From positions 353,393 through 417,392 of the forward strand of contig CAWJZV010000034.1 in assembly GCA_963847445.1 (NCBI GenBank): a DNA stretch of 64,000 nucleotides. The letters run 5' to 3'. The notes beneath the pieces were generated by a model that saw only the letters and a list, made by a program, of their open reading frames with translations, was not told the origin of the DNA and did no database searches. Of the stretch, positions 32,297 to 52,171 are shown piece by piece; the stretch's first letter is position 1, and every line of letters begins with the position of its first letter. The translations under genes and the position numbers were made by a program. This DNA comes from an uncultured delta proteobacterium (GTDB lineage: Bacteria; Desulfobacterota; Binatia; UBA9968).

Positions 32297-32315
32297 GTGG
32301 AGAAGGAGCGACCCC

Positions 32316-35465: not shown

Positions 35466-35485
35466 ATTTCCGGTTTTCTGTGATC

Positions 35486-35524: not shown

Positions 35525-35862
35525 GTCCGAGTGTTGGGGCGGTTGTCGATGAACTCATGTAATCCGGAAGGAACGGTCATTTTCCGTGATTTTGTTCGCG
35601 CAATGGGCTTGGTTATGATTTAGCTAAATTCTAAAACATGGATCTGTCGGCTTTGAATATTCCGGTGGTGTAGAAACCCAGGCCGCCATGAAGGTAGGCA
35701 ACATTGATCCAAGGGGTGAAAGAGGGTATGTTGACACGATTTCCGACAAAGTTAGGGCGATTGGCGGAGGGGTTCTAGAGGCGATCTTACACTCGTACCC
35801 CAACCTAAATAATTCCCGCCTGACGGGTGCTGCAAAAACTAACTGCAAAGGATGAATCAAGC

Positions 35863-36783
35863 GTGGATCCGAAACAGCTGACCATCGAGCAAGTTCAAGA
35901 AATTCTTCTCAAAGAAAAGTACGTCTGCGACCGTTCCCTTGCGACTGTGGTTTATTTATCGCTGGTAATGGGTAAACCCCTGCTTCTCGAAGGCGAGGCG
36001 GGTGTCGGTAAGACTGAAATCGCCAAAGTGCTGTCCAAGGTCTTGGGCGCGCGGCTAATCCGCTTGCAGTGCTACGAAGGGCTCGACGCCAGCACCGCGC
36101 TCTACGAGTGGAACTATCCCAAGCAGATGCTCCACATCAAGCTCGAAGAGATCGAGCGCGGCGATAAGAAGCAGGTCGAGACCGAGATTTTCACCCAGGA
36201 CTATCTGGTCAAGCGGCCGCTGCTCGATGCGATTCAAAGCGAGGATGCTACGCCGCCGGTGCTGTTGATCGACGAGATCGACCGCGCCGATATGGAGTTC
36301 GAGGCGTTTCTGCTCGAAGTGTTGTCCGATTTTCAGATCACCATTCCCGAGTTGGGTACGGTGACGGCGAAGCATCGGCCCTATGTGTTTCTGACTTCCA
36401 ACCGCACGCGGGAAATCCACGACGCCTTGAAACGGCGCTGCTTGTACCACTGGATCGAGTACCCGACCTTCGACAAGGAATACGAGATCATCACCACCAA
36501 GTTTCCCGAAGTCGAAACCAAGATGGCGCAGCAAATCTGCGCCTTCATGCAAAAGGTGCGCGAGATGAATTTCTACAAGCGCCCCGGCGTCGCCGAAACC
36601 TTGGATTGGGCGTCGGCGCTGATCGCGCTCAACCGTAAACAGTTGGATGACAAGTCGGTGATCGAGACCATGGGTTGCGTGTTCAAGTACCGCGAAGATT
36701 TGAGCCACCTGCGCGAGCAGGTGGAAAACCGCCAGTTCAGTCTCGACGCGCTGCTGCGCACGTCGCCGGAGCTAGTGAGTTAA
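35863..36783 (+). CDS. coxD: MoxR-family AAA+ ATPase, CoxD-like
   Basis: LLEGEAGVGKTE, IRLQCYEGLD, LLIDEIDRAD, TSNRTREIHDALKRRC and PGVAETLDW. Confidence 0.9.
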   Translation: MDPKQLTIEQVQEILLKEKYVCDRSLATVVYLSLVMGKPLLLEGEAGVGKTEIAKVLSKVLGARLIRLQCYEGLDASTALYEWNYPKQMLHIKLEEIERGDKKQVETEIFTQDYLVKRPLLDAIQSEDATPPVLLIDEIDRADMEFEAFLLEVLSDFQITIPELGTVTAKHRPYVFLTSNRTREIHDALKRRCLYHWIEYPTFDKEYEIITTKFPEVETKMAQQICAFMQKVREMNFYKRPGVAETLDWASALIALNRKQLDDKSVIETMGCVFKYREDLSHLREQVENRQFSLDALLRTSPELVS

Positions 36784-36789
36784 AACTCG

Positions 36790-38004
36790 ATGGATATCAC
36801 TCCCGAAACAGTCGCGGAGGCGGTCAACAAAGTCGCCTCGGTGCGCGGCAAGGGCACCTTGCCGAACATGATGGCGTTTGGCCGCGCCTTGAAACATCTC
36901 GGTGTCAAGGTCAGCTTGAGCCAGCTGCTCGATGCCTCGCGTTCGGCGCAATGGGTCGACATCGCCGCGCGCGGCGATTTTCGTGCGCTGTTGCGCGCTA
37001 ACTTGATCTCGCAAAAAGAAGACTTTCCGGTCTTCGACATGCTCTTCGATTGTTTCTGGCGCGAGCAGAGTTACGAGCGCGTGCCGATGGAGACCATGGA
37101 CATTCAAGGCACGCCCACCGACTCCAACGCCCCGGAGGGCGGCGATGAGGAGGGCGGCGTCGAAGAGGCCGCCTCCGAGGCGATTGCCAATGAGAATCTG
37201 CCGCTGGAAAACCTTGACGAGTTCGCGGTGCCGACCTATAGCGCCCAGGAGCTGATGAACCGCAAGGATTTCAGCGAAATGGGCACCGAGGAAAGCCGCG
37301 CCATCGCCAGAGCGATACTGCTGATCGCCACCAAGATCGCCACCCAGATCAGCCGGCGCAAGAAAATCGGCCGCAAAGGTCCGGTGATCGATCCGCGCGC
37401 GACCCTGCGCCGCAGCATGAAATACGGCGGCGAAGTGATCGAGATGGCGCACCGCAAGCGGCGCATCAAGAAAACCAAAGTCGTGCTGCTATGCGATGTC
37501 AGCGGCTCGATGGATTGTTACAGCCGGTTTCTGATTCAGTTCATGTACGGCCTGCAAAACGAACTGTGGGGCGTCGAGACTTTCGTTTTTAGCACATCGC
37601 TCAGCCGAATTACCCACCTGATCCGCACCAAGAATATCGTCGATGCTTTGGACAAGATTTCCGGCACTATTCTTGGCTGGTCCGGCGGCACCAACATCGG
37701 CCGCTCGCTGCATACCTTCAACCGCAATTTCGCGCCAAGCATGGTGACCCACCGCACGGTGGTGGTGATCATCAGCGACGGCTGGGACCGCGGCGACGTC
37801 AGCTTGTTGGAAAAAGAAATGCGGGACATCAAACGGCGCGCCAAGAAAATCATCTGGCTCAATCCTTTGCTAGCGAGCGAGAACTACGAACCGCTCTGTA
37901 AAGGCATGCAAGCGGCGCTGCCGTATTTGGATCTGTTTTTGTCGGTGCACAATGTCAATAGTTTGGTTGCGTTAGGGCGGACACTCGAGAAAATGGTGGC
38001 GTGA
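36790..38004 (+). CDS. coxE: VWA domain protein, CoxE-like
   Basis: MIDAS motif LCDVSGSM, WSGGTNIG, IISDGWDRGD and IWLNPL. Confidence 0.9.
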   Translation: MDITPETVAEAVNKVASVRGKGTLPNMMAFGRALKHLGVKVSLSQLLDASRSAQWVDIAARGDFRALLRANLISQKEDFPVFDMLFDCFWREQSYERVPMETMDIQGTPTDSNAPEGGDEEGGVEEAASEAIANENLPLENLDEFAVPTYSAQELMNRKDFSEMGTEESRAIARAILLIATKIATQISRRKKIGRKGPVIDPRATLRRSMKYGGEVIEMAHRKRRIKKTKVVLLCDVSGSMDCYSRFLIQFMYGLQNELWGVETFVFSTSLSRITHLIRTKNIVDALDKISGTILGWSGGTNIGRSLHTFNRNFAPSMVTHRTVVVIISDGWDRGDVSLLEKEMRDIKRRAKKIIWLNPLLASENYEPLCKGMQAALPYLDLFLSVHNVNSLVALGRTLEKMVA

Positions 38005-38016
38005 TTTATCAGAACC

Positions 38017-38074
38017 GAAGATAGAGGATCGAGGATAGAGGATCGCCATCTTCGATCCTCTATCTTCCATCGTC
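38017..38074. repeat. Palindromic heptamer-repeat element (GAGGATA/C)n-(inverse)n
   Basis: GAAGATA GAGGATC GAGGATA GAGGATC GC CATCTTC GATCCTC TATCTTC CATCGTC. Confidence 0.85.
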
Positions 38075-38097
38075 GACCCAACTGAGGAGGTACTCAC

Positions 38098-38493
38098 ATG
38101 GCTGGACCCGGCGCTTGTTACACGGACGCGGATTTAGAAGCGAAAAAGAAAGATACGATCTATCATCAGGTCAACGAGTTTCTCGCCAAGGGCGAGACCG
38201 TCGCGGTGGCGACCATCGTCTCGGCCAAGGGCTCGACGCCGCGCGAAGTCGGCGCCAAAATGGTAGTGACCGCTTGGGGTGAAATCTTGGGCACCATCGG
38301 CGGCGGCTGCGGCGAGGCCGATGTCAAACGCGAAGCTATCGAAGTGATCCGCTCGCGCAAGCCGCGCACCGTGCGCGTCGACTTGCTCGACGATATTTCC
38401 TCGGATAGCCCGGCGGTATGCGGCGGTATCATGAATGTCTTCATCGATCCCTGGTGGCAGGAACGCGATCAGGAGGCAGCAAGCGGCAAATGA
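38098..38493 (+). CDS. XdhC/CoxI-family accessory protein, N-terminal half
   Basis: ATIVSAKGSTPREVGAKM, GTIGGGCGE and CGGIMNVFIDP. Confidence 0.88.
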   Translation: MAGPGACYTDADLEAKKKDTIYHQVNEFLAKGETVAVATIVSAKGSTPREVGAKMVVTAWGEILGTIGGGCGEADVKREAIEVIRSRKPRTVRVDLLDDISSDSPAVCGGIMNVFIDPWWQERDQEAASGK

Positions 38494-39263
38494 GTTCACT
38501 GTCCGAAGAGTTAGTCAAGATCGCCGAGCAGGGTGAAGCGGCGGTGCTGGTGACCATTGTCGAAGTGCAAGGCGACGGGCAAATCCAACCCGGCGCCAAG
38601 TGTCTGATCCGCGACGGCAAGGCGCAGGTGGAAACGATCGGTGACGCCAACGTGGTGGCCGCCCTGGTGCGCGAGAGCGACGGCCATGCGCGGGCGGAAA
38701 AATCGCAGTTGGTTTCGCTGGCGATCGCCGACAGCACGATCAAGCTCGAAGCGTTCTTCGAAGTCATGCCGGCGCCGCCCAGGCTGATCGTCGTCGGTGC
38801 CGGCCATATCGCCGTGCCGCTGGTGAAGATGGCCAAGGTGCTCGATTTTCACGTCACCGTGATCGATGACCGTTTGCTCTACGCCAACCGCGAACGCTTC
38901 CCCGACGCCGATGAAGTCTTGACCGGCGACATGGCGCAGATGCTCAAGGAAATGACCCTCACGCCGTCCTGCTATATCGTCTTGATTACCCGCGGTCATG
39001 CTTACGACGAGCCCTGCCTGCGCAACATCATTCACAGCAAAGCCAAGTACATCGGCATGATCGGCAGCCGGCGGCGCATCAAGGCGTGCTTTCAGCGTTT
39101 TCGCGATGAAGAAAAAGTCACCGAGGAGGCGATCGAACGCATTTACGCGCCCATCGGCCTCGACATCGCCACCGAAACGCCGGCCGAAATCGCTGTGTCG
39201 ATTCTCGGCGAGGTGATCAAGATTCGGCGCGGCGGCAAAGCCGCGTCGTTATCGGGTCATTAA
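38490..39263 (+). CDS. XdhC/CoxF-family accessory protein, C-terminal (Rossmann) half
   Basis: LIVVGAGHIA, DDR, TRGHAYD, YIGMIGSRRR and APIGLDIATETPAEIA; ATGA overlap with the upstream half. Confidence 0.9.
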   Translation: MSSLSEELVKIAEQGEAAVLVTIVEVQGDGQIQPGAKCLIRDGKAQVETIGDANVVAALVRESDGHARAEKSQLVSLAIADSTIKLEAFFEVMPAPPRLIVVGAGHIAVPLVKMAKVLDFHVTVIDDRLLYANRERFPDADEVLTGDMAQMLKEMTLTPSCYIVLITRGHAYDEPCLRNIIHSKAKYIGMIGSRRRIKACFQRFRDEEKVTEEAIERIYAPIGLDIATETPAEIAVSILGEVIKIRRGGKAASLSGH

Positions 39264-39275
39264 ACTATTTCGCGC

Positions 39276-39692
39276 GTGACGACGATGGAACGATTGAGCG
39301 GAATTATTTTTTCCGACTTGGGGCAAGCGTCATCGTTTATGGCGCTCGATTGGGTGCAGGATTTGTTAAATGAGCGCCTTGGCTATCATCCGTTTCCAGC
39401 GACCCTCAATGTCCGGCCCAAGGGCGCCGAAGACGCTCGGGTGTGGCGGCAGGTGCAGCGCGATCATGCTGGCGCGCCATTGACGCCGGCCGCCGACGGT
39501 CATTGTGGCGCGAAGTTATATCGCGTCGAAATTTACCAAGAGGCGAATAGCATTAAGGTCGGTGGCGCAATTTTGCTTCCCGAAGTGGATGATTATCCGC
39601 AAGATAAAATTGAAATTGTCGCGCCGGTGCGCGTGAAAGATTATTTCCGGGTTGACGACGGCGATCAACTTACAGTGGAGTTCCTCAGTTGA
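39276..39692 (+). CDS. CTP-dependent riboflavin kinase family (archaeal type, DUF120)
   Basis: GIIFSDLGQASSFM...LGYHPFPATLNV...IEIVAPVRVKDYFRVDDGD follows the family pattern SGLGEG...PYPGTLN...EIIAP..LR...DGD. Confidence 0.78.
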   Translation: MTTMERLSGIIFSDLGQASSFMALDWVQDLLNERLGYHPFPATLNVRPKGAEDARVWRQVQRDHAGAPLTPAADGHCGAKLYRVEIYQEANSIKVGGAILLPEVDDYPQDKIEIVAPVRVKDYFRVDDGDQLTVEFLS

Positions 39693-40348
39693 ATACCAAG
39701 AAGCGGCTCATTATCGGAGTCTCCGGCGCCACCGGGGCGATTTACGGCGTGCGCATGTTGGAGATTCTCTCCAAGATCGGCGACCTTGAGACTCATTTGG
39801 TCTTGAGCAAGGCCGGCAAGATGACCATCCAAGTAGAAACGCCCTACTCGGTCAAAGAGGTCGAAGCTATGGCCGACGTGGTGCATGACGTTAACAACGT
39901 CGGCGCGAGCATTTCCAGCGGTTCGTTTCGCACCGCGGGCATGGTGATCGCGCCATGCTCGATGAAATCCATGGGCGCTATCGCCCACTCTCTGGGCGGC
40001 GATTTGTTGGTGCGCGCCGCCGACGTGGTCTTGAAAGAACGCAAGAAACTCGTGCTGGTGGTGCGCGAAACGCCGCTGCATCTGGGCCATCTCGAGGCGA
40101 TGGCGACGCTCACGCGCATGGGCGCGATCATTTTCCCGCCGGTGCCGGCGTTTTATCATCGGCCGAAGACTTTGGACGATGTGATCAACCAGACGGTGAC
40201 GCGGATCCTCGATCAGTTCGACATCGATGTCGAATTGTTTCACCGCTGGGACGACGACGGCATGAGCCGCCACCCCGACGCGGCCAAGCCTAAGCCGACG
40301 CCGATCAGTGCAGCCAAAGAGCGCAAGGAAGCGAAGAAGCAGCGCTAG
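39689..40348 (+). CDS. ubiX: Flavin prenyltransferase UbiX
   Basis: GVSGATGAIYG, SISSGS, APCSMKS, RAADVVLKERKKLVLVVRETP and PPVPAFY. Confidence 0.96.
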   Translation: MNTKKRLIIGVSGATGAIYGVRMLEILSKIGDLETHLVLSKAGKMTIQVETPYSVKEVEAMADVVHDVNNVGASISSGSFRTAGMVIAPCSMKSMGAIAHSLGGDLLVRAADVVLKERKKLVLVVRETPLHLGHLEAMATLTRMGAIIFPPVPAFYHRPKTLDDVINQTVTRILDQFDIDVELFHRWDDDGMSRHPDAAKPKPTPISAAKERKEAKKQR

Positions 40349-40366
40349 GCTTACGGCTCTCGGACC

Positions 40367-41419
40367 ATGCCACGCCCCCGGGCCAATAAAGCCCTCACTA
40401 AAACCCAAGCGCGCAAGAAGCAGCATCTGGAAATTTGCCTCGACACCGCCAGCGTTAGCAGCCATTCCAGCACCGGGCTCGACCGCTATCGTTTCATTCA
40501 CAACGCTTTGCCTGAACTGGATCTCGACGAGATCGAGGTGGCGACGACGTTCCTCGGTCAGAAACTCAAAGCGCCGATCTTGATTTCGTCCATGACCGGC
40601 GGTTTCGATCTGGCGCGCAAGGTCAATCGCAATCTCGCCGCGGCGGCGCAGGAACTCGGCATCGCCATGGGGGTCGGTTCTCAGCGGGTCGCCATCGAAG
40701 AATCGTCCGCTGCCGAATCGTTTCAAGTGCGCGATGTCGCGCCGGACATTCTATTGCTTGGCAACCTGGGCGCGGTGCAGTTGAATTATGGCTACACCAT
40801 CGAGCAGTGCCGGCGCGCTGTTGCGATGATCGGCGCCGACGCTTTGATTTTGCATTTAAATGTTTTGCAGGAAGCGCTGCAGCCCGAGGGCAACCGCAAC
40901 TTTAAGGGACTGGCGGAAAAGATCGCCGCGGTTTGCCGCGAGCTGAAAGTCCCGGTGGTCGTCAAAGAAGTCGGCAACGGTATTTCCGTCGAGGTTGCCA
41001 AGCGATTACATAGCGCCGGCGTTGCCGCCATCGATGTCGCCGGCAAAGGCGGCACCGCCTGGTCCGCCGTTGAAGCCCAGCGCGCGACCCAACAAGGCAA
41101 ACCCTACAGCACAACTTTCACCGACTGGGGTATACCCACCGAAGAAGCGTTGGTCGGTGTACGTGCCGCGTTGCCGGAGATTCAGTTAATCGCTTCGGGC
41201 GGCATTCGCAGCGGACTCGATGTTGCCAAGAGCATCGCGCTGGGCGCGGACATAGCGGCTTTCGGCCAGCCGTTGCTGGCGGCGGCATTAGAGTCGCCGC
41301 AACGAGTCGTCGAATATATTTCTACTATCATCCATGAGTTAAAAGTCAGCATGCTCTGCTCTGGGGCGCGCGATCTTACAGCGCTTCGAAAGGCCCACTT
41401 GGTACGGCAGTCTCCTTAG
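40367..41419 (+). CDS. fni: Type 2 isopentenyl-diphosphate delta-isomerase (FMN-dependent)
   Basis: RKKQHL, HNALPE, ISSMTGG, GVGSQR, HLNVLQE, KEVGNG, GGT, WGIPT and SGGIRSG. Confidence 0.96.
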   Translation: MPRPRANKALTKTQARKKQHLEICLDTASVSSHSSTGLDRYRFIHNALPELDLDEIEVATTFLGQKLKAPILISSMTGGFDLARKVNRNLAAAAQELGIAMGVGSQRVAIEESSAAESFQVRDVAPDILLLGNLGAVQLNYGYTIEQCRRAVAMIGADALILHLNVLQEALQPEGNRNFKGLAEKIAAVCRELKVPVVVKEVGNGISVEVAKRLHSAGVAAIDVAGKGGTAWSAVEAQRATQQGKPYSTTFTDWGIPTEEALVGVRAALPEIQLIASGGIRSGLDVAKSIALGADIAAFGQPLLAAALESPQRVVEYISTIIHELKVSMLCSGARDLTALRKAHLVRQSP

Positions 41420-41492
41420 GCCGATTCGCGCTTGTTCGTAGTCATCGTTGCTCACGATTTCAGCTCCCCGTTTTTTTTCACTGGTTGATTTC

Positions 41493-41536
41493 ACCGGTGG
41501 ATTTGCCCCGCTGTGGGTGAAATCCACCGGTTTGTT
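41493..41536 (+). terminator. Strong hairpin, probable terminator after fni
   Basis: ACCGGTGGATTT (41493-41504) and AAATCCACCGGT (41520-41531) form a perfect 12-bp inverted repeat followed by TTGTTT. Confidence 0.7.
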
Positions 41537-41669
41537 TGCCCGACAAAAGCTAGCCCAATTCACTCTTGGCGCGGCGTATTGGGTTAGGTGATTGTTAAGC
41601 CTCGTTACTTATAGATTAATTCTCCCATGGTTCAGTCTCACCATCGGCTGTCGTAAGTTTAAGATTCAG

Positions 41670-41685
41670 TGGCATAGCGATTGCT
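41670..41685 (+). promoter_or_regulatory. Sigma54 (-24/-12) promoter upstream of the glycosyltransferase cluster
   Basis: TGGCAT-AGCGA-TTGCT (GG-N10-GC) in an AT-rich intergenic region ~170 nt before the ATG. Confidence 0.7.
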
Positions 41686-41855
41686 CAATTCTATCTACAG
41701 AAGCGTACGCGGAACCTGCGCTAATACTAAATAAAAACTGAATAGTGATAAATTCTCAGCGATAGAGCAGTACGGTGGGGGGTGGTCCGACAAACGCACT
41801 GGCACAGCAAATTAACTCGCGGCGAAAAATTAATTAGAACTCTCCGGAGGCAACA

Positions 41856-43099
41856 ATGAAAAGACTGCTGGCATATTCGCATGACACTTATGGCTTGGGG
41901 AACATCCGGCGCATGCTGGCGGTCTGCAATCACCTGGTCGATGCGATCCCCGATTTGTCGATCTTGCTGATTTCCGGATCGCCGATGGTACATAGTTTTC
42001 GTATCAAGAGCGGTATCGATTACATCAAGCTGCCATGCCTGTCGCGCACCAAGGCCGACGGCTATGCGGCAAAGAGCATCGGTGTCGATCTCAAAGAAAC
42101 CGTCGATCTCCGTTCCGACTTGATCTTGCAGACCGCCAGCCGGTTTAAACCGGATGTGCTCCTGGTCGATAAAAAACCTTACGGCGTCGAGCATGAGTTG
42201 CGTGACACGCTCAATTACCTACACACCAATCTGCCAGACACAAAGCTGGCATTGTTGCTGCGCGACGTGCTCGACAGCGCCGAGGCGACCACCGCGGTGT
42301 GGAAGAAAAACCGCTATTACGAAGCGGTTCGCAAGTTTTACGACCTGGCGCTAGTGGTCGGTTTGCAAGAGGTATTCGATCTCAGCAAAGAGTATCGCTT
42401 TCCCTGTTCGACTAAAGACAAAGTACGATTCTGTGGTTACATCGGCCAGCACGACAAGCCGCAGCACCGAACCGAGCTGCGCCGTGAATTCAATCTTAAA
42501 ACCGAAAAGCTCGTGTTGGTCACCGTTGGTGGCGGCGAGGATGGTTACTGATCTCTTAAAGAACTACCTTTGCGGCCTAAACCCGTGCGGGAGCGCGCAA
42601 GCATTCGACAGCCTGATCGTTTGCGGTCCCGAGATGGCACCGCAGCGGCGTGCCGATATTGGGCAAATCGCCGCGGGCCGGGCTCATGTCCAAGTACGCG
42701 AGTTTGTTAATGACATGCTCGGCTACATAGACGCCGCCGATGTGGTGGTTTCCATGGGCGGTTACAACACGATTTGCGAGCTCCTATCGTTGCACAAACA
42801 TGCGGTGATCGTGCCCCGCGCCAAACCGGTGGAAGAGCAATGGATTCGCGCTGAACGCATGGCCAACCTCGGTTTGTTTAGAGTCATTCATCCCGATTTT
42901 GTTACGCCGGCTAACTTGCGCGGTGCCGTTGCCGAGCTCATCGGTGTCAATGGCAAGCAGTCGCTGCCGCCGTCGTTGGATCTCGCTGCGTTGCCGCATA
43001 TTGCCGGCCACATCGCGCGCCTCTTGAGCGACGCGTCCGGCACGACTACAGGTGAGGGCACCGCTGCGCGAGATGGCACGAGAACGGTACTTCGCATGA
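41856..43099 (+). CDS. Predicted glycosyltransferase (COG4671-like, GT-B fold); frameshift at ~42550
   Basis: YSHDTYGLGNIRR, VDKKPYG, LRDVLD and VTVGGGEDG, then VSMGGYNTICE and EQWIRAE in the next frame. Confidence 0.8.
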
Positions 43100-44393
43100 A
43101 CGCGCCGAGAGCGGGGAAGCGCATTGCGTATCTAGTCAAGACGTTTCCGAAGATCTCCGAGACGTTTATCCTGCGCGAAATCCTGGCGTTGCAAGATCAA
43201 GACGTCGATCTACAGATTTACGCGCTGCGACACCCCGAAGAGAGCAAAAGCCACTCGATCGATAGCGAAGTACGGGCGCCGGTCAGCTATCTTCCTCGGT
43301 CATTTGCCGAGAAAGCAGCGAGCATGCTGTGGGCGCAATTGTTATTGCTGCTTTGCCGTCCGGCTGCCTATCTGCACGCGATGGTTTTTCTCGTGGGCCG
43401 GGCGGAATCGGGGCGCTATCAAATTTTCTTCAGGCCACCTATCTGGCGCTGGCGTTGCTGAGGGCCAAGGTCGCGCATCTGCACGCTCACTTCATCAATG
43501 AGCCCGCCGGGGTCGCCGAACTCGTGCATTTGTTAACCGGTATTCCCTACAGTGTCACCGCCCATGCCAAGACATCTATCTGTCGCCCAGCGGAGCTGGT
43601 TCGTAAAATGGCCAAGGCCAAATTCATTGTCACTTGTAACGATTACAATCGGCGCTATCTCACACCAGATGGGCGCCGATGTGCCGATATCAAGATCTAT
43701 CACGGTCTCGATGCACGGCTTTTTCAGGCCGATGCCGCGGTTTATCCAAGCGCTGAGGCGTCACTAGTGCTGAGCGTCGGTAGACTGCGTCCGAAGAAGG
43801 GTTTCCATTGTTTAGTCGACGCCTGCGGTTTGCTGAAGATCGGCGGCCACGAATTCCGCTGCATGATCGCCGGCTACGGACCTTTGCGTGGGGAGCTGGA
43901 GACGCGCATCGCCAAGCTCGGTCTGGAGGATACGGTTTCGCTAACCGATATGCTCACGCAAGGGGAAGTGATCGCGCTGTATAAACAGGCATCGCTATTC
44001 GTTTTACCATGCCGGATCACCGCCGACGGCGATCGCGATGGCATTCCCAATGTTCTAGCCGAGGCGATGGCGATGGAACTGCCGGTGGTGTCGACGAATA
44101 TTGCCGGCATTCCGGAGTTAGTCGAACATAATCGCACTGGCATACTCGTCCGGCCGGAAGATCCTGTGGAGCTTGCGGCGGCGATCGCCCGACTGCTCGA
44201 TCAGCCGCAGCTGCGCGAAGAGTTGGGCAAGGCCGGGCGCGAAAGAGTTTGCCAAATGTTCGCCGCGGAGAAACGCGGCGCAGCTAAATCCTGGTTCGTC
44301 GGCGCGCCGCCGGCTGCGGTCGACCCCATGGCCGCGCTGCCGGCGGGCGGAAACGCCAACCACGGAATTATCGATCTGATGTCTGGAGTCTAA
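43096..44393 (+). CDS. Glycosyltransferase family 4 (WcaL-like), frameshifted
   Basis: AYLVKTFPKISETFILREI, HLHAHF, SVGRLRPKKG and DRDGIPNVLAEAMAM. Confidence 0.85.
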
Positions 44394-44397
44394 GGCG

Positions 44398-45110
44398 ATG
44401 CAGGAGCGGCTCGAAATAGCGTATATCATGAAGGGATTTCCCCGGCTCTCCGAGGTCTCATTTCCAATGAAGTCCAATTGCTGGAGAGCCTGGGGTTGCG
44501 CCTGCATATATTCGCCCTGCGAAGCTTGTCGGAAAAAAAGTTCACGCCCAGGTAGATCGAATTCCAAGCACGGGTAAGTTATCTGCCGAAGATCCGTCGC
44601 CGCCGAGGCGCCCTTCGGCGTTTGGTTGCGGCACAATTTTTTCAAGCTAATCGACGGCCATGGCATGCTCCTAAAGCGCCGAACGATGGCCTATCTCAAC
44701 GACCTTTTCGGTGCTGTGCAGTTCAGCGTGAAATACCGGCCGCAGTTCTGGTGTCTGAAAAGGTCATTCTATAAAGATTTTCTCCGCGCCGGTGGATATC
44801 GCCGCGCGGGTGCTCGATGCTCAAAGCATCGGCCACCTACATGGTCACTTTTGCCATGGTTCGGCAACTATCACGATGTGGGTGAGCCATCTGACCGGTA
44901 TCCCGTTTAGTTTCACGGCTCATGCCAAAGATATTTATTTGCCGAGCTCAATCCCGGAGATTTGCTGCCCAAAAAAATCCGCCAAGCTGAATTTGTCGCC
45001 ACCTGCACCGATGCCAATCGGATTCATCTGCAGCGGCTCTGCCCGGAAGCGCGCTCAATCCAAACCGTCTATCATGGTTTATCGACGGCGTTTACGCCGG
45101 CGCGTCCGTG
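44398..45110 (+). pseudogene. Second GT4 glycosyltransferase, N-terminal fragment with many frameshifts
   Basis: MQERLEIAYIMKGFPRLSE, HLHGHFCHGSAT, FSFTAHAKDIY and VYHG; ends abruptly at an A-rich tract. Confidence 0.7.
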
Positions 45111-45147
45111 CTCGGAGAAAAAAACATAATAAAATAAAACAAAATAA

Positions 45148-45960
45148 ATGAGTATAGTCCACCACTATCATCATCTGGTGCTCAAGAATTATTTGTGGGT
45201 GCGCCGGCTTGCCAAGCTGAATCATATCGCCTGCCTGCGCGATGGACGATCTGATGCGCAAGGCGTTGGAATTCGCGGTTTACGTGCACCGGCCGGACGG
45301 TGCGATTCCCTCGCTCAGCGACGGCGATAGTCGAAGTTTTCTCATCTGTTGGCGCAGGGCCATGAACTGTACTGTGATGAGGCGATGCTCTATGTCGCCT
45401 CCGGCGGCCAAAGGGTTCAGCACCAGCGCAGCGCTCGAAAGGATTCGCCGATGGCGGTTACACATTCTTCGCAGCGGCTGGGGTGACGGCACCGAAGCTT
45501 ACCAAGACGAGCGCTATCTGATTTTCGACTGTGGTCCGCTCGGCGCGGCAATCGCGCATTCGATCTGTTAGTTTTGAGATGGCGGTATGGCCGCTCGTTA
45601 ATCGTCGATCCCGGCCGTTACACCTATGACGAGTCCGGCGAGGAAAATTGGCGCGTGCGTTTTCGCGGCACGGATATCACAATACCGTGCAGGTCGATGG
45701 GCTCAATCAGACGCGTTACGAATTTAAGAATACCAGTCGAATCACCGGACCGAGCCGGCGTGGCAGCTGTGCGAGTGGCAGAACGGCGCCGGCTACGATT
45801 ATCTACGCGGCCTGGCGCGCACCACGAGTATGACGCGGTGCATGAGCGGCGGATTTTTTCTGCGCGCGGAGTATTGGATTGTGTCGGATCTGTTGCGCGC
45901 GCCGGGCTGCATGTTTACGACTGCGTTTTCATCTTGGCGCGACGCAACGATCGGGTGTTG
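45148..45960 (+). pseudogene. Heparinase II/III-like (alginate lyase family) internal fragment
   Basis: YHHLVL, PDGAIPSLSDGD, ILRSGWG, FDCGPLG, IVDPGRYTY and HNTVQVDG across frames. Confidence 0.7.
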
Positions 45961-45974
45961 AGGCCGCGTCTTGT

Positions 45975-46220
45975 GGCCGCGGCCTTGTTTCGACCAAAGT
46001 CGGCGGCTGTGAAGATTTGCTTGACGAGAGCCAAAACGGGTTTTTCATCAAAAGAGATCTCGCTGATATTCGACGACGTATTGTTCAATTGGAGGCGGAT
46101 CGCCCGTTGGTCAAACGGTTAGGCGAAAACGCTCGGCGGAAAATTCTCGAACAATACTCCTGGGCAATCCGGGTGCAAGACTGGTTGAAATTTATCGAAG
46201 CGAACCTGCCGGCGGTTTGA
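45975..46220 (+). pseudogene. GT4 glycosyltransferase C-terminal fragment
   Basis: VSTKVGGCEDLL...NGFFI...LGENARRKILEQYSW. Confidence 0.6.
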
Positions 46221-47375
46221 GTGAATGGCATGTTAATTATCGGCACAGCAAAAATTGCCAATGCGACGGTCGGTCATATCGACCACGCGATGGCCTATTT
46301 GAGTGGCTTGCAGCGGCTGGGCCATGAAGTCTATTTGATGGAGCATGTCGGCGCCAATCGCTGCGTCGATTCACAGGGGCAAAAAGTACCTTTCGAAAGT
46401 TGGCAGGGGCGATGCCATTTCGAACAGGTGGCAAAAGCCTATGATATCTGGCCACGCTGTTGCCTGGTCTACAAGGGCGGCGAGGCGACCTACGGCATGC
46501 CGTTTTCCGACGCGGTCAAAGTCGCGCAGCGCTGCGATTTGCTTTTCACTCGCAGCGGAGAGATCGACAAAGCCCCGGAGATATTCCAAAACGCGCGGCA
46601 GCGCGCCTACTTCGACGGCAACCCCGGCAGCACACAGGTCTCCTACCAGCAGTGCGGCTCCTACGAGGCACTGGATCAGTACGACCACCTTTTTACCCTC
46701 GGCCTCAATATCGGCGCGCCGTCATGCCCTATTCCCACACGGAGGCGCCGCTGGCACGCGATGGTCCGCCCGGTGTTTCTGCCGATGTGGCCCCGGTGCA
46801 GCGATCTCGACCGTCAGTGCTTCACAACTATTTCCACTTGGAAAGGACGAGGGACTTTCGCATGGCAAGGCAGTCAGTCGGGTGAGAAGTCCGACAATTG
46901 GCTCAAGTTCCTCGATCTGCCCAAGCGCGTCGCACAGCGAATGGAAGTCGCGTTGAAAATGGAAACTGCCGATCAACAGGCCGATCGCGCCTTGTTTGAA
47001 GAAAACGGTTGGCGCCTCACCGAGCCGACAGAGCTGCGCTATTTCGACGATTACCGGAACTACATCAGACAATCCCGCGGCGAGTTCAGCGTTGCTCATA
47101 ATCGCTATGTCGAATTTTCCACCGGCTGGTTCAGCGACCGCAGCGCCTGCTATTTGGCCTCCAGTCGGCCGGTGTTGGTGCAGTCAACCGGCATCGAAAA
47201 GCACCTGCCGACCGGCAAAGGGTTGCTGACCTTTAGCACGATGGAGGAGGCGGTCGCCGGCATTGAGGCGATCAACCGGGATTACCCGGCCCATTGTCAG
47301 GCGGCGCGAGAGATTGCTGAAGAGTTTTTCGATTCCGACAAAGTGCTGACCAAGGTGCTGAGTCAGATGGGTTAG
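46221..47375 (+). CDS. Putative GT-B glycosyltransferase-like conserved protein
   Basis: YLSGLQRLGHEVY and YRNYIRQSRGEFSVA...GWFSDRSACYLASSRPVLVQSTG...AREIAEEFFDS. Confidence 0.65.
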   Translation: MNGMLIIGTAKIANATVGHIDHAMAYLSGLQRLGHEVYLMEHVGANRCVDSQGQKVPFESWQGRCHFEQVAKAYDIWPRCCLVYKGGEATYGMPFSDAVKVAQRCDLLFTRSGEIDKAPEIFQNARQRAYFDGNPGSTQVSYQQCGSYEALDQYDHLFTLGLNIGAPSCPIPTRRRRWHAMVRPVFLPMWPRCSDLDRQCFTTISTWKGRGTFAWQGSQSGEKSDNWLKFLDLPKRVAQRMEVALKMETADQQADRALFEENGWRLTEPTELRYFDDYRNYIRQSRGEFSVAHNRYVEFSTGWFSDRSACYLASSRPVLVQSTGIEKHLPTGKGLLTFSTMEEAVAGIEAINRDYPAHCQAAREIAEEFFDSDKVLTKVLSQMG

Positions 47376-47965
47376 TGTTGATCATGAATCTCCACCTAGA
47401 AACTGCGGCACCCGAGACCCCGGCGGGTTTTTTGAAAGGCGATAGGTCGACACGGACGTTTGACAGGTTCACAGACCCCGAGGCGATGCGTGAAATATTC
47501 CAAGCGCGACTGCCAGGGTTTCCCGGCGGCAATCTAGTGGCGACTCGCTGTGACATTCTTTTCACCCGATACAAGACTTTTGTGCGGCCGGAGTCGCGGC
47601 ACAATTCGTCCATAGCCTTATGTTATGAGCTCGTGGTCGGTGATCGCGCGGGGCATTTGTTAGGAAGCCAGCTCTTTTACGCCAAAGCCTTTGTCGATGG
47701 TCGAAGCGCGCAGGATTACTCGGCTGCGCCGGGCTATCGGTTAGTAGCGCCACGGTTTGGCGACCCGCTGATGCATTGGGCGGATCTCGACATGGTCCTT
47801 TGGGCTTTTCCCAACGATCCGGCACTGCCGCATTTGGCTGGCGTTATGAACGCCAAAGGCGTGCGGCCTTTTCTTCCCGATGGTTCACTCGCTCCAGGTA
47901 ACGCTGGCGTCTACGATCGCGCGGATGTCGCAGTCGAGGTGATTCACTATTATCCAGAGGAGCGC
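47375..47965 (+). pseudogene. Hypothetical protein N-terminus (AFPNDPALP, possibly phosphotransferase-associated), truncated
   Basis: Coding-like ORF with WAFPNDPALPHL and HYYPEERC; switches abruptly into a glycosyltransferase sequence. Confidence 0.45.
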
Positions 47966-49800
47966 TGCCGCTTGAGTCCGACGAGAACTTCAAAGAGATT
48001 CGCAGCACCGATGGCTCGCGCAGTCTGGCAGAAATCAAAAGCGCCCGCGTGCGCTGCTTGCTCGATGGCTACGAACGCTTGCAGCCGGATATTTTAGTCA
48101 TCGAGCTGTTTCCGTTCGGGCGCAAACAGTTTGCCTTCGAGTTGGTGCCGCTCTTGGCGCGTATCCGGCTCGCCGGCGGCAAGACCAAGGTGGTATGCAG
48201 CCTGCGCGATATTCTGGTCAGTCGCAAGGATCAAGCGCGCCATGAGGCGCGGGTTTGCGATCTGCTCAATCGCTACTTCGATGCGCTGTTAGTTCACGCC
48301 GATCCTCAATTGCAGCGCTTGGAAGAGACGTTTTTTAGTTTATCGGAATTGAAAACGGCGATCCACTACACGGGTTATGTTTCGCAGCCGATCTCAACGA
48401 TGGCCGAATCGAGTGACGACCCATCGGTTCAACTTGGCATTTCATCAATAGTGCCGGCAATCTTGGTCAGCATCGGCGGTGGCCGGGTGGGCTCTGAGCT
48501 TTTGCAATCGGCGATCAGAGCCAGTTCGGAGCTAGCCGCGGTTCAACCACATCGCATGTTGGTGTTCACTGGGCCATACTTGCCGGATGAACAGTTCGCG
48601 GCTTTGCAGGAGCTGGCCGCGAGCCGGCCGGCGGTGATGCTGGAGCGCTATACGGCTCAGTTCGTTTCGTTGATGGCGCAGTCACAACTGTCGGTGAGCA
48701 TGGCAGGCTACAATACCTGCATGAACATTTTGACCACCGGGACGCCGGCGTTGGTTTTGCCGTTTACCGGGGGCAATAACAGCGAGCAAACCGTGCGCGC
48801 CAAGAAGCTAGCGGAACTCGGCGCGGTGACGATGCTTGGGCCGCAGGATCTTGAACCGGTCCAGCTGGCGCAAAAAATGGCGCAGGCGCTTAAGTCCCAG
48901 GCGCCCCGCGCAGTGGTGAATCTCCGCGGTGCCGAGAATGCGGCGGCGTATCTCGGCACACTCGCGGCAGGGGAAAAGACCGCGGCGTTAGTTTCGCCGT
49001 CCTGGTTGGCGACTCATGTGCCGGGCCGAGACTTGTTCCGTGCCAGTGGAGAGCGCCTGCGCGCGGTTCTCGAACAGTTGCAACACGAGGACCGGGAAAT
49101 AAATATTTTTCTGCGCGATGATGATATCGACGACGACGAAGAAACCCTGCGCCAATTACTGGACATAACTTTCGCCCGTGGTGTGCCGGTAAATCTTGAA
49201 GTGATTCCCGCGACCTTGACCGATGATGGCGTCCGGCTGCTGCGCGACTATCAAGGCTTCGATGCCAATCTGGTCGAGCTACACCAGCATGGCTGGCGCC
49301 ATGTGAATCACGAAACTGTTGGAAAAAAGAGTGAATTCGGCGGCGCGCGCGGGTTTGCCGACCAGTTGCAAGACATCGCGCGGGGCAAAGCGCGTTTGGA
49401 GGAATTGTTGGAAGAGCGCTTCTTCCCGGCTTTCACACCGCCTTGGAATCGTTGCACCGACGATACTCTGCGGGTGCTCGACCAGCTCGGCTTTCAGGTG
49501 TTTTCCGCCGACAAAAACGGCCGGCAGCGCGATGGCCAGCGCTTTCGTGAAATCTCGATTACCCTCGATCTGTTTCGCTGGAAGGGGGGCGCGGCGTTGA
49601 AAGCGCCGGCAGAAATCATCGAACAATTGACCGGTCAAGTGAGTCGCGGTGGAACCGTCGGGATACTCTTGCATCACAAGGTGATGGATGGCGCGGCGTT
49701 TTATTTTCTTGATTTTCTCCTGGCGCAGTTGCGCCAGTACTCCAATCTGAAATGGCGGACGCTTGGCGGCTTACTGCCGCAGGTTAGCGAGGGGCATTAA
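47965..49800 (+). CDS. COG4671-like glycosyltransferase fused to a polysaccharide deacetylase domain (N-terminus missing)
   Basis: IELFPFGRKQFAFEL, CSLRDIL, SIGGGRVG and SMAGYNT, then FLRDDD, HQHGWRH, FTPPWNR and GILLHH in one frame. Confidence 0.8.
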   Translation: MPLESDENFKEIRSTDGSRSLAEIKSARVRCLLDGYERLQPDILVIELFPFGRKQFAFELVPLLARIRLAGGKTKVVCSLRDILVSRKDQARHEARVCDLLNRYFDALLVHADPQLQRLEETFFSLSELKTAIHYTGYVSQPISTMAESSDDPSVQLGISSIVPAILVSIGGGRVGSELLQSAIRASSELAAVQPHRMLVFTGPYLPDEQFAALQELAASRPAVMLERYTAQFVSLMAQSQLSVSMAGYNTCMNILTTGTPALVLPFTGGNNSEQTVRAKKLAELGAVTMLGPQDLEPVQLAQKMAQALKSQAPRAVVNLRGAENAAAYLGTLAAGEKTAALVSPSWLATHVPGRDLFRASGERLRAVLEQLQHEDREINIFLRDDDIDDDEETLRQLLDITFARGVPVNLEVIPATLTDDGVRLLRDYQGFDANLVELHQHGWRHVNHETVGKKSEFGGARGFADQLQDIARGKARLEELLEERFFPAFTPPWNRCTDDTLRVLDQLGFQVFSADKNGRQRDGQRFREISITLDLFRWKGGAALKAPAEIIEQLTGQVSRGGTVGILLHHKVMDGAAFYFLDFLLAQLRQYSNLKWRTLGGLLPQVSEGH

Positions 49801-49803
49801 ACC

Positions 49804-51555
49804 ATGGCAGCGCAACAATCGACCAAGCTTAAGCAAATCATTCTCAGCCAGTTGATGCAGAGCCGTGGGAAAGTGTTTCTCGGTATATTGTGTATTGGTG
49901 GTTATGCGGTCACCCAACTGCTGGCGCCTTGGCCGCTGAAGATTATTTTCGATTACGTCTTGCTGGACAAGCCGCTGCCAGAATTCTTGAGCTTCTTAGG
50001 CGGTCTCATCGGCGGCGATAAGGTTTTCGCCCTGATTATCCTGTCCCTGAGCATCGTCGGCATCGCGCTGTGCGGCGGTGGCTTGTCCTATTCGGAAACC
50101 TACTTCACCTCGCGCATCGGCTACGAGCTAGCGCACCGGCTGCGGCGCGACTTGTTCAACCATTTGCAGCGGTTGTCGCTATCGTTTCACAGCCGGGCTG
50201 GTTCCGGCGAGCTGCTCACCAAGGTGTCGAGCGATACCAACGCTCTGCGCGATGTGTTCACCGAGTCGGTGCTGACCTTTATCGTCCACTCGCTGACGCT
50301 GCTCGGCATTTTCGCGACCATGTTCCTGGTCAATTGGAAACTCGCCTTGATCGTGCTGGGCAGTTTCCCAGTGATGTTTTTGGCGCTGCAGTATGTCTAC
50401 CGGGAGATCAAAGCTTCGGCGCGCCGGCAGCGTGGCAAAGAAGGGAAAATCGCCGCGCGCATCAGCGAAATCCTGTCCGCGGTTACCCTGGTGCAAGCCT
50501 TCGGCCGGGAGCGTTACGAAGGCGAGCGCTTTGCAAACGAGAGCGCCGAAAGTTTGCACGAAGGCATCCGCACGGCGCGCTTGGAAGCCGCGGCGACTCG
50601 TACCGTGGAGATTATCGGTTCTATTGGATCTTGGGCGGTGATTTTGATCGGTTCCCTGCAAGCTCTGAACGGCCGGATGACGCCGGGGGATATTTTGATC
50701 TTCGCGGTTTACGTCAACCAAGTTTATCGGCCGATCCGCCAGATGGCGAAGCTCTTGAGCCGCTTCTCGCGGGCCATGGCTAGCGCCACGCGCATCGGCG
50801 AGATCTTGGAGCTGGAGCCGGAGATTGCCGACGCGCCTGATGCCTTTGAGGCGAGGAACCTCAAGGGCGACATCGAGTTTCGCGATGTCTCGTTTGACTA
50901 CGGCGACGGCAAGGCGGTGTTGGACGAGGTCTCGTTCACCATCGGCGCCGGCGAACGGGTGGCGCTCACCGGTGTCTCCGGGGCTGGCAAATCGACCATC
51001 GTCAGTCTGATCCTGCGCCTCTACGATCCGCGAGCTGGTGCGATCGTCATCGATGGCGTCGATGTTAGAAAGTACCAGCGCGAATCGCTGCGCCGGGAGA
51101 TTGGCGTGGTGCTGCAGGACGCGCTGCTTTTGGGCGCGACCATCCGGGAAAATATTGCCTACGGTAAACCGGACGCGAGCATGGAGGAGATCGAGCAGGC
51201 GGCCAAGCAGGCCCATGCCGATGATTTCATTGCGACGCTACCGGACGGTTACGAATCGCTGTTGGGCGAGCGTGGCGCGACGTTGTCGGGCGGCCAACGC
51301 CAGCGCATCGCCTTGGCCCGAGCGATGATCAAGCGGCCCTCGATATTGATTCTCGACGAGCCCACTTCCGCCGTCGATGCCGAATCGGAAAAGATCATTT
51401 GGGACGCTGTCGAACGCTTGCAACAAGGACGGACGGTGCTGGTCATCGCGCATCAGTTGTCGACCATCAAGCGTTGCCATCGGGTTTTGGTGCTGAGAGA
51501 AGGTGCGGTGCTGGAGAAGGCCCAAGGCGGTGAAGCCATGCGGCAGTACCTCTAG
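49804..51555 (+). CDS. ABC exporter (TMD+NBD, MsbA-like)
   Basis: TM domain, GVSGAGKST, LSGGQRQR and LILDEPTS. Confidence 0.93.
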   Translation: MAAQQSTKLKQIILSQLMQSRGKVFLGILCIGGYAVTQLLAPWPLKIIFDYVLLDKPLPEFLSFLGGLIGGDKVFALIILSLSIVGIALCGGGLSYSETYFTSRIGYELAHRLRRDLFNHLQRLSLSFHSRAGSGELLTKVSSDTNALRDVFTESVLTFIVHSLTLLGIFATMFLVNWKLALIVLGSFPVMFLALQYVYREIKASARRQRGKEGKIAARISEILSAVTLVQAFGRERYEGERFANESAESLHEGIRTARLEAAATRTVEIIGSIGSWAVILIGSLQALNGRMTPGDILIFAVYVNQVYRPIRQMAKLLSRFSRAMASATRIGEILELEPEIADAPDAFEARNLKGDIEFRDVSFDYGDGKAVLDEVSFTIGAGERVALTGVSGAGKSTIVSLILRLYDPRAGAIVIDGVDVRKYQRESLRREIGVVLQDALLLGATIRENIAYGKPDASMEEIEQAAKQAHADDFIATLPDGYESLLGERGATLSGGQRQRIALARAMIKRPSILILDEPTSAVDAESEKIIWDAVERLQQGRTVLVIAHQLSTIKRCHRVLVLREGAVLEKAQGGEAMRQYL

Positions 51556-51697
51556 TTGTACAGAATCGGCTGCTCGTCGAATCCTCTCCGGCTCGATTTA
51601 TCCAAGGTGACCTTGTCTTTGGCGAGCGCCAAAGAAGGTGCTAGAATCTCGGATCGCATTGACGGCTGCGGGTTGTGAGCCCAGATTAGGTCCCCAA

Positions 51698-52171
51698 ATG
51701 GCTGACGCTTCAAAACAGCAGGTCCTTGATTATCTCAAGGGGCATAACACGATGACCTTGGCGACTGCCGCAGGCGACCTACCCTGGGCTGCGACGGTCT
51801 TTTATGCCAGTGACGGCTTGCGGCTGTATTTCTTTTCGGCGCCGGAGTCGCGTCATTGCCAAAATATTGCGGCCAATGGGCGAGTGGCCGTGACGATTCA
51901 GGAAGACTATCAAGATTGGCGCAAGATCAAAGGCATTCAACTTGAAGGGCGGGCCGAGCTGGTCGACGGGGTAGTGGCAAAGGGCAAAGCGATGGCCATT
52001 TACGCCCTCAAGTACCCGGAAGTCATCAAGCTCTTTACCGATCCGACAAGCGGGGTGTTTCACAAGGCGTTTCTGAAAGTTAAGTTCTATTGCGTGGTGC
52101 CGGAGAAACTGTTCTTTATCGATAACGCGCAGGGGTTTGGCAAGCGCCAGGAACTGCTCTTGGAGCCATAG
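51698..52171 (+). CDS. Pyridoxamine 5'-phosphate oxidase family (split-barrel flavoprotein)
   Basis: MTLATA, PWAATVFY, SRHCQNI and IKGIQLEG. Confidence 0.85.
   Translation: MADASKQQVLDYLKGHNTMTLATAAGDLPWAATVFYASDGLRLYFFSAPESRHCQNIAANGRVAVTIQEDYQDWRKIKGIQLEGRAELVDGVVAKGKAMAIYALKYPEVIKLFTDPTSGVFHKAFLKVKFYCVVPEKLFFIDNAQGFGKRQELLLEP

Follow-up and report, generated by a model that had tools for sequence, protein, structure and literature searches.

Published UbiX systems contain small flavin-binding helper proteins that accompany UbiX (PMC13040415; PMC10865409). Here we set beside these systems a stretch of 64,000 nucleotides from an uncultured delta proteobacterium (contig CAWJZV010000034.1, positions 353,393 to 417,392), called "the window" throughout, in which the gene for UbiX lies between that of a protein of the archaeal-type family of riboflavin kinases that depend on cytidine triphosphate, CTP (RibK-like) and that of a type-2 isopentenyl-diphosphate (IPP) isomerase, Fni. 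The likeness to the described UbiX-UbiD systems with PhdC/YclD and LpdD lies in the clear UbiX and in a remote relative of PhdC, here called c5, that travels along with it. Unlike those systems, the locus has no adjacent UbiD gene, its c5 is without the ExW motif, and it brings a RibK-like gene, a type-2 IPP isomerase and a further protein, c8, of its own. The explanation that we favour, as probable rather than secure, is that the three genes are the core of a conserved module for the supply of prenylated flavin mononucleotide (prFMN), made up of RibK-like, UbiX, Fni, c8 and c5, in a Candidatus Binatia-like host whose UbiD clients are encoded elsewhere. Together with a set of genes directly upstream, the module would make a block of cofactor-service genes with no client enzyme adjacent.

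A polycistronic UbiD-UbiX-NUDIX transcript is reported in the one paper listed that has both phenylphosphate and Nudix, and a NUDIX gene of a UbiD-UbiX transcript has been taken as a hydroxylase candidate (PMC5852087). The literature we searched, with subscription journals largely outside it, yielded no link between prFMN and riboflavin kinase, no combination of UbiX with riboflavin kinase and isopentenyl, and nothing relevant on UbiX with YhbP, XdhC or UPF0306. Papers that name both UbiX and riboflavin kinase exist, but judged from the search listing they concern other topics. Among the literature matches listed for phenylphosphate none concerned riboflavin kinase or DUF120, although older descriptions of open reading frames (ORFs) in phenol clusters may exist.

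The trio and the module around it

The three genes and the structure that follows them are:

39276..39692, + strand: RibK-like protein (PF01982/DUF120, archaeal-type CTP-dependent riboflavin kinase family), ORF of 138 amino acids (aa)
39689..40348, + strand: UbiX flavin prenyltransferase, 219 aa (NF004685, 278.8 bits)
40367..41419, + strand: Fni, type-2 (flavin mononucleotide (FMN)-dependent) isopentenyl-diphosphate isomerase, 350 aa (TIGR02151, 432.6 bits)
41493..41531, + strand: terminator-like hairpin, a perfect 12-bp inverted repeat (41493-41504/41520-41531) followed by UUUGUUUG

A preliminary description of this DNA had reported three closely packed genes, joined by an overlap of 4 nt and a gap of 18 nt and trailed by a strong hairpin, and all of these features are present. 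Specifically, the RibK-like and UbiX ORFs share the four nucleotides TTGA, UbiX and Fni are 18 nt apart, and the hairpin folds with -26.3 kcal/mol (z = -4.24), a stability reached by none of 200 shuffled sequences; its arm sequence occurs a single time in the window. Taken whole, the 146-nt region around the hairpin is unexceptional (z = -1.78). The hairpin starts 74 nt past the Fni stop codon, inside a stretch that is unaligned to relatives from that stop on. The RibK-like gene probably starts at the ATG at 39285 rather than at the GTG at 39276, because most listed close homologues are 135 aa long.

Named close homologues of the RibK-like protein carry the label Candidatus Binatia, and the window itself is unremarkable chromosomal DNA of a bacterium, carrying genes for ribosomal proteins, rpoA, trp and type II secretion. 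The same description had found neither ubiD nor any isoprenoid-pathway gene here, which is borne out by our scan of 65 long window ORFs against Pfam: none matched UbiD (PF01977), an enzyme of the methylerythritol-phosphate or mevalonate (MEP/MVA) pathways or a prenyl synthase. Rfam families (hence an FMN riboswitch) and tRNAs are likewise absent from the window.

What had to be given up is the picture of a self-contained three-gene unit. The trio makes up the 3' portion of a block of seven closely spaced genes, MoxR-VWA-XdhC-XdhC-RibK-UbiX-Fni, and in relatives two more genes, c8 and c5, lie downstream of it. In the window only the first three genes of the module look like a unit, because an island of about 10.3 kb parts Fni from c8:

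41420..51697, no strand assigned: island without counterpart in the closest relatives, about 10.3 kb, with glycosyltransferase and ABC-exporter genes, separating Fni from c8
51698..52171, + strand: c8, YhbP-like FMN-binding split barrel (PNPOx_N; PF01243, E = 1.4e-14); the longest ORF starts at 51638
52213..52689, + strand: c5, PhdC-like flavin split barrel and candidate prFMN maturase, with PhdC as its top solved match

Comparison with the nearest relatives suggests that the island was inserted between Fni and c8 in this genome. In blastn alignments with loci L001, L002, L003 and L012 (nucleotide identity about 88-93% for L001, L002 and L012, and about 78-81% for L003) the window aligns up to 41296-41406 and resumes at 51698/51713. 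The island is absent from 46 of 47 related loci, its left part being shared with L004 alone, and neither a tRNA nor a repeat was found at its ends. Its genes (41856-51555) fall into the Pfam families GT28, GT1, DUF2334 and ABC_membrane/ABC_tran. Both c8 and c5 are intact in the window, with 89% and 95% identity to their respective counterparts in L001.

Gene order, gene fusions and the Azoarcus cluster

The conservation of the module was assessed in 52 related loci, found when genomes, one for each species, were scanned with aligned close RibK homologues. All are metagenome-assembled genomes labelled Binatia, delta proteobacterium, Thermodesulfobacteriota or similar, with RibK identities of 40-92%; because the search alignment consisted of close homologues, all 52 are Binatia-like and a single class was sampled. 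Window proteins were compared with each locus by tblastn, and the counts refer to evaluable loci. Synteny of the trio in related genomes, a check that the preliminary description had proposed, is evident: UbiX directly follows RibK in 50 of 50 loci (L047 and L052 stop at a contig edge) and Fni follows UbiX in 45 of 47 (the contigs of L016, L040 and L044 end too early). Fni is absent from L046 and L049 though their contigs continue, and both read RibK-UbiX-c8-c5. The conserved order extends in both directions. XdhC lies directly upstream of RibK at all 49 loci, c8 comes after Fni (after UbiX in L046 and L049) at 46 of 47, and c5 after c8 at 45 of 46, the locus L004 lacking both; MoxR and VWA are found wherever the contig extends that far. 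The spacing is also tight: of the 41 loci with calls for both ORFs, 33 have RibK overlapping UbiX, 25 of them by exactly 4 nt, and the gap between XdhC and RibK is at most 48 nt in 28 of 37 measured loci, figures for overlap and gap that rest on longest-ORF start calls.

At most loci colinearity reaches further, to type II secretion genes on the upstream side and HlyD/ABC/MacB efflux genes on the downstream side. The deep-branching loci L045-L050 have a TPR gene upstream instead of the type II secretion genes, and L045, L046 and L049 have lost the downstream efflux genes as well. Where they can be evaluated, these loci retain MoxR-VWA-XdhC-XdhC-RibK-UbiX and then c8-c5 (L047 ends within RibK); L045 and L050 also have Fni, L046 and L049 do not. 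Amidohydro_2 genes adjoin c5 in L046. This family is not known to depend on prFMN, and we set these genes aside as clients.

Natural fusions tie the same components together in other organisms. Among 150 listed RibK relatives we scanned the 30 that are longer than a single domain. Most (22, including P0128 and P0146) join PF01982 to a HAD hydrolase, in either domain order; this partner could be a flavin-pathway phosphatase or a phosphatase of dimethylallyl diphosphate (DMAPP) or dimethylallyl phosphate (DMAP). One protein, P0158, joins PF01982 to a type-2 IPP isomerase (TIGR02151, 347.9 bits against a cut-off of 281.3), and two join it to a c8-like domain: P0202 (hhalign E = 4.9e-42, 46% identity) and P0211 (E = 1.5e-21). 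A low-molecular-weight phosphatase, a glyoxalase and an MFS transporter domain were each found once as the partner, and two proteins had no second Pfam domain.

In the corresponding scan of 79 long UbiX forms, two carry a c8-like domain (P0294, E = 4.2e-21; P0328, E = 3.3e-17), eight carry UbiD, five carry PF01180, a dihydroorotate-dehydrogenase-like FMN barrel, and one an HD domain. Another ten (P0302, P0304, P0309-P0311, P0313, P0317, P0320, P0321 and P0329) carry PF09523 (DUF2390/TIGR02444), a family of unknown function that may be a further UbiX accessory domain.

A link to client enzymes comes from a plasmid. In plasmid records tblastn found a single DUF120 gene of bacterial origin; it lies on NC_020548.1 (pAZKH), a plasmid of Azoarcus sp. 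KH32C that also carries, 12 kb away, the best plasmid homologue of c8 (50.7% identical). The region (NC_020548.1 128511-141574) reads:

one strand: sigma-54 regulator and c8 homologue
other strand, in order: PEP-utilising enzymes, ppcB, ppcD, ppcA, ppcG, UbiD, UbiX, DUF120, NUDIX, AMP-binding

The ppc genes belong to a phenylphosphate synthase/carboxylase (phenol-carboxylation) cluster, annotated as one for anaerobic phenol degradation, and the c8 homologue abuts the gene of the cluster's sigma-54 regulator. UbiX and DUF120 of this cluster are 57.6% and 35.5% identical to the window proteins; DUF120 overlaps UbiX by 4 nt, and NUDIX follows 19 nt after DUF120. The Azoarcus cluster thus resembles the window in pairing UbiX with a DUF120 protein of the same subfamily through a 4-nt overlap and in its close c8 homologue. 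It differs in that UbiD-family clients are adjacent, that a NUDIX gene stands in the place of Fni and that the order is UbiX-DUF120, not RibK-UbiX. In the 40 kb of the plasmid examined there is neither a c5-like PhdC nor a MoxR, VWA or XdhC gene. Two more remote plasmid homologues of c8, H6 and H9 (32-35% identical), were not counted: the Paraburkholderia copy has no UbiX close by, and the record from Cupriavidus carries no annotation.

Fni is the least fixed member of the module, missing from two of 47 related loci and replaced by a NUDIX hydrolase in Azoarcus. The preliminary reading of the trio as a prFMN-supply operon draws partial support from the synteny, from the fusions and from the UbiD context in Azoarcus, and needs correction as to size, the unit being larger than three genes.

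The proteins and their predicted roles

The UbiX assignment is secure at the family level. The protein scores above both curated cut-offs (NF004685, 278.8 against 188 bits; TIGR00421, 239.3 against 108.9), matches PF02441 with 139.4 bits, and has as its best solved relatives 1SBZ (E = 1.9e-57) and Aspergillus niger Pad1, 6QLG (E = 1e-56), that is, the E. coli O157 and Aspergillus enzymes. In a phmmer alignment the Arg-Glu pair of the phosphate site is kept, R126-E127 facing R161-E162 of the Aspergillus enzyme (AnUbiX), where E162 is the equivalent of E140 in the Pseudomonas enzyme PaUbiX (PMC6541611).

The preliminary description had predicted that this UbiX uses DMAPP. Its Q168 aligns with Gln203 of AnUbiX, a DMAPP-specific enzyme, at a position where the DMAP-specific Pseudomonas enzyme has Phe181 and the E. 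coli O157 enzyme, which takes DMAP and DMAPP, has His164 (PMC6541611). This agrees with the prediction. However, the residue is not the sole determinant and mutating it leaves the specificity unswitched (PMC6541611), and the Azoarcus UbiX, encoded next to a NUDIX gene, carries the same Gln. The use of DMAPP by the window enzyme is therefore only weakly suggested.

Fni scores above its equivalog cut-off (TIGR02151, 432.6 bits against 281.3, model positions 2-335 of 338). The RibK-like protein is a member of PF01982 (CTP-dep_RFKase, 73.7 bits against a cut-off of 25, positions 2-120 of 121), and its best solved relative is the riboflavin kinase MJ0056, aligned over the full length (E = 1.8e-9). 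Archaeal RibK proteins are described by the motifs GTLN, GxGEG, LRxxxL and PxxTxx, and the Mg2+ ligands of MmpRibK are Gly14, Asn41 and Glu104 (bioRxiv 10.1101/2021.04.15.440061). The window protein has ATLN at the GTLN position, with T43 and N45 invariant, and N45 and E113, the equivalents by motif position of Asn41 and Glu104, are invariant in three alignments. The subfamily has invariant residues of its own, W26, C77 and Y107, which the fusion proteins and the Azoarcus copy share and which differ from their MJ0056 counterparts. Compared with archaeal RibK (MJ0056; PDB 2P3M, 2VBS-2VBV), the window protein is thus alike in Pfam family, in the Thr and Asn of GTLN and in the Glu of E-I-(I/V)-A-P; it is unlike in being bacterial, in its nucleotide loop (DLGQA), in its own invariant Trp, Cys and Tyr and in scores below the equivalog level. 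Riboflavin kinase activity is plausible. Because RibK orthologues are stated to be absent from Bacteria (PMC5397151), a bacterial branch of the family is unusual in itself.

Less specific is the assignment of c8, which is very highly conserved (mean column identity 71% over 26 species). Of the NCBIfam families YhbP fits it best, with 49 bits where the cut-off is 176, and Foldseek searches with its AlphaFold model (pLDDT 84.6) returned generic flavin/heme split barrels, with no specific function. The predicted complex of the RibK-like protein with c8 has a score of 0.00, which weighs neither for nor against binding, and a search for long c8 relatives returned none, yet it also missed the 290-aa fusion P0202.

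For c5 neither Pfam nor NCBIfam gave a family match. A single-sequence search of solved structures has PhdC (9SRG) at the top (E = 0.004), a profile of the c5 family matches PhdC with E = 1.6e-6, the next, unrelated match being at 0.64, and in Foldseek searches with the AlphaFold model (pLDDT 87.1) PhdC takes ranks 1-4 and 6-10 (E about 2e-8, TM 0.62-0.68). PhdC has an active-site Glu47 and, near the C terminus, a strictly conserved ExW motif of Glu136 and Trp138 (PMC13040415). The invariant Glu50 of c5 aligns with Glu47. Another invariant stretch, E121-D122-Q123-E124, is left unaligned to PhdC by the profile, and the c5 model falls below pLDDT 50 at residues 130-136. We regard c5 as a candidate remote relative of PhdC; because no counterpart of ExW is visible, membership in the PhdC family is not established. 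No relatedness between c5 and c8 is detectable by hhalign (probability 0.3%).

Taken together, the favoured supply module might work as follows. The RibK-like protein would serve the flavin side, most likely by making FMN from riboflavin, perhaps from its reduced form. Fni, which works with FMN itself, would convert IPP to DMAPP, and UbiX would attach the dimethylallyl group to reduced FMN, yielding prFMNH2. The remote PhdC relative c5 might then oxidise the cofactor or hand it on, and the YhbP-like FMN barrel c8 could act as a flavin-side helper, either reductase or carrier. The product would serve UbiD-family enzymes encoded elsewhere in the genome. The genes may be co-transcribed.

A broader proposal, which we put forward tentatively, is that the DUF120/RibK-like subfamily and the YhbP-like c8 family are widespread parts of prFMN biogenesis that make reduced FMN and deliver it to UbiX, accompanied by an interchangeable gene for the prenyl donor. 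Under this proposal c8 would be a reductase or carrier of reduced FMN, and the third gene would be Fni where DMAPP is used and NUDIX, or perhaps the HAD domains fused to RibK, where DMAP is used.

Upstream genes and competing explanations

The genes directly upstream of the trio, and a promoter-like match in front of them, are:

35786..35813, + strand: sigma-70-like promoter match CTTACA-16-AATAAT, just 5' of MoxR, the only + strand match in 35000-42500
35827..36783, + strand: MoxR-class AAA+ ATPase (CoxD-like; PF07728 AAA_5), first gene of the block
36790..38004, + strand: VWA protein of CoxE type (PF05762 VWA_CoxE, 198.8 bits against 26.4), starting 6 nt after MoxR
38098..38493, + strand: stand-alone XdhC/CoxI N-domain protein (PF02625, 88.3 bits; positions 1-105 of NF045664)
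38490..39263, + strand: full-length XdhC with N and Rossmann domains (PF13478, 151.3 bits; PF02625, 39.8 bits)

For the full-length XdhC, whose longest ORF begins at 38418, the probable start is the ATG at 38490, which shares 4 nt with the stop of the gene before it; the protein reaches 211 bits against NF045664, below the cut-off of 350. The promoter match is weak: the region contains 4 matches, and shuffled sequences lead one to expect 3.4. By family assignment the four genes look like a maturation set for molybdenum hydroxylases; they resemble the CoxD, CoxE and CoxF maturation genes. The likeness to such genes lies in the co-oriented set of MoxR AAA+, CoxE-type VWA and XdhC/CoxI; unlike them, the set here has no adjacent hydroxylase genes, has XdhC as an N domain plus a full copy and stands next to a prFMN module. 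Structural hydroxylase genes (large, FAD and FeS subunits) were found neither in the window nor in the sampled flanks. They do adjoin one of the plasmid homologues that are 54-55% identical to the window MoxR, that of Deinococcus sp. AJ005, which belongs to a coxMSL-coxG-XdhC-MoxR-VWA cluster; in Paroceanicella such a homologue is part of a MoxR-DUF4260-VWA-XdhC-molybdopterin-binding set. The match of MoxR to NF047784 ("MadB family") reaches 284.7 bits, below the cut-off of 475, and we did not adopt the names MadB and MadC for the MoxR and VWA proteins, which come from such sub-cut-off matches and for which literature searches gave unrelated uses. Enzymes of the UbiD type and of the xanthine-dehydrogenase family occur together in known routes for degrading aromatics and furans. 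The fixed adjacency of the maturation set and the prFMN module may possibly reflect a co-regulated cofactor service for pathways that use both types of enzyme.

Several observations weigh against the supply-module explanation. No UbiD (PF01977) was found among 49 representative flank proteins of the related loci. In the RibK-like protein the GxGEG nucleotide loop reads DLGQA in every aligned Binatia member, deep-branching ones included, and the RibK equivalogs are missed (NF040694, ribK_Meth, 56.1 against 168 bits; NF010762, 50.3 against 279); of the riboflavin kinase named in the preliminary description, membership in PF01982 stands, while the loop and the missed cut-offs leave the identity of the enzyme in doubt. 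More distant members of the subfamily, the Azoarcus protein included, retain GxGE(G/A). In c5, no ExW motif is recognisable and the C-terminal part holds no Trp, and the match to the PhdC profile is limited to residues 9-93. Moreover, c5 may belong with the HlyD/ABC/MacB efflux operon. It overlaps the HlyD-type gene of an HlyD/ABC ATPase/MacB-type permease set (52213-55915) by 4 nt in the window, and of the 38 related loci with calls for both genes, 30 show an overlap of 1 or 4 nt; because the start of that gene is overlapped, c5 appears to be translationally coupled to the efflux system; L045 and L046 retain c8-c5 without efflux genes. The junction of Fni and c8 is a variable seam: in L009, L013, L030, L041, L043 and L045 the spacer (65-96 nt) is filled by hairpins of -29 to -46 kcal/mol, and in other species it is at most 9 nt long or the genes overlap. 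The synteny of the module is partly inheritance rather than selection, because the wider region is mostly colinear within the class and the 52 loci represent one class. Finally, none of the 79 long UbiX forms carries PF01982, and most of the fusion proteins are single metagenome gene calls that could be merged neighbours, a case in which they would still show adjacency.

Inheritance of gene order is also at the centre of the simplest alternative, which we consider unlikely: a housekeeping neighbourhood in which a general riboflavin kinase, a UbiX for quinones and an Fni for carotenoids or other isoprenoids happen to keep an inherited order of FMN-related genes. The presence of the block at every evaluable Binatia locus within mostly colinear surroundings would be expected from it, as would the lack of client enzymes in the window and the sampled flanks, and Binatota are predicted carotenoid producers (PMC8262859). 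It does not account for a DUF120-UbiX pair with a 4-nt overlap beside UbiD-family carboxylase genes on a betaproteobacterial catabolic plasmid, for the fusions that tie RibK, c8, UbiX and Fni together in other organisms, or for the module being kept in deep-branching loci despite changed flanks. Alternatively, the RibK-like protein may be no kinase of riboflavin at all, serving instead as a flavin-binding adaptor or sensor that passes FMN to UbiX, or phosphorylating something else, such as prenol or a prenylated riboflavin. We think this improbable as well. The DLGQA loop of all Binatia members seen, the missed equivalog cut-offs and the invariant W26, C77 and Y107, which depart from MJ0056, speak for it, and PF01982 domains serve as sensors in archaeal RbkR proteins (PMC5397151). 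Against it stand the invariant Thr43 and Asn45 of (G/A)TLN and Glu113, equivalents of residues that hold the triphosphate and Mg2+ (bioRxiv 10.1101/2021.04.15.440061), and the near-canonical loop in more distant subfamily members, Azoarcus included.

A further alternative is that all seven genes from MoxR to Fni are one system in which MoxR, VWA and XdhC act as an ATP-driven insertion chaperone for prFMN, not for the molybdenum cofactor. XdhC always precedes RibK (49 of 49 loci), mostly within 48 nt (28 of 37), the only + strand promoter-like match sits before MoxR, and deep-branching loci keep the adjacency despite changes among the other neighbours. We nevertheless give this explanation very little credence: the 54-55% identical MoxR homologues sit in ordinary clusters of the CO-dehydrogenase/xanthine-dehydrogenase family without UbiX, the Azoarcus cluster has no MoxR/VWA/XdhC genes, and XdhC, VWA and AAA_5 domains are absent from all 79 long UbiX forms. 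The archaeal-type mevalonate pathway uses a UbiD-family anhydromevalonate-phosphate decarboxylase, and the trio could in principle belong to it, UbiX supplying prFMN to that enzyme and Fni completing the step from IPP to DMAPP. The side-by-side genes for UbiX and a type-2 isomerase would fit, as would a kinase family of archaeal type whose RibK orthologues are stated to be absent from Bacteria (PMC5397151). This origin is highly improbable in our view, as neither the window nor the flank genes sampled include any gene of the pathway, Fni is missing from two of 47 loci, and the sole client-bearing context is one of aromatic carboxylation.

Elsewhere in the window, apparently split genes, seen as adjacent or overlapping ORFs, lie at 11811-13494, 32049-35465 and 41856-44393. 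The arginyl-tRNA synthetase gene falls into two pieces, a gene for a GT28-type glycosyltransferase is likewise divided, and the secretin gene is parted from its SPOR-domain end, the two forming a single ORF in L003. Frameshift errors in the assembly could account for this, or the genes may be real pseudogenes.

UbiD-family (de)carboxylases are of importance to the anaerobic breakdown of aromatics, to the synthesis of quinones and to CO2 fixation by biocatalysis, and loading them with active prFMN in foreign hosts is a recurring practical obstacle (PMC13040415; PMC10865409). On the supply-module explanation, the locus offers candidates for the source of reduced FMN, for the prenyl donor in vivo and for helpers in maturing or carrying the cofactor. 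Two candidate helpers, c8 and c5, had not previously been linked to prFMN. The locus also places a bacterial branch of the archaeal-type riboflavin-kinase family in a specialised context. The factor that handles prFMN in E. coli is described as still unidentified (PMC10865409). If our more tentative proposal of widespread parts is true, E. coli YhbP, a distant relative of c8, would be a candidate for that factor.

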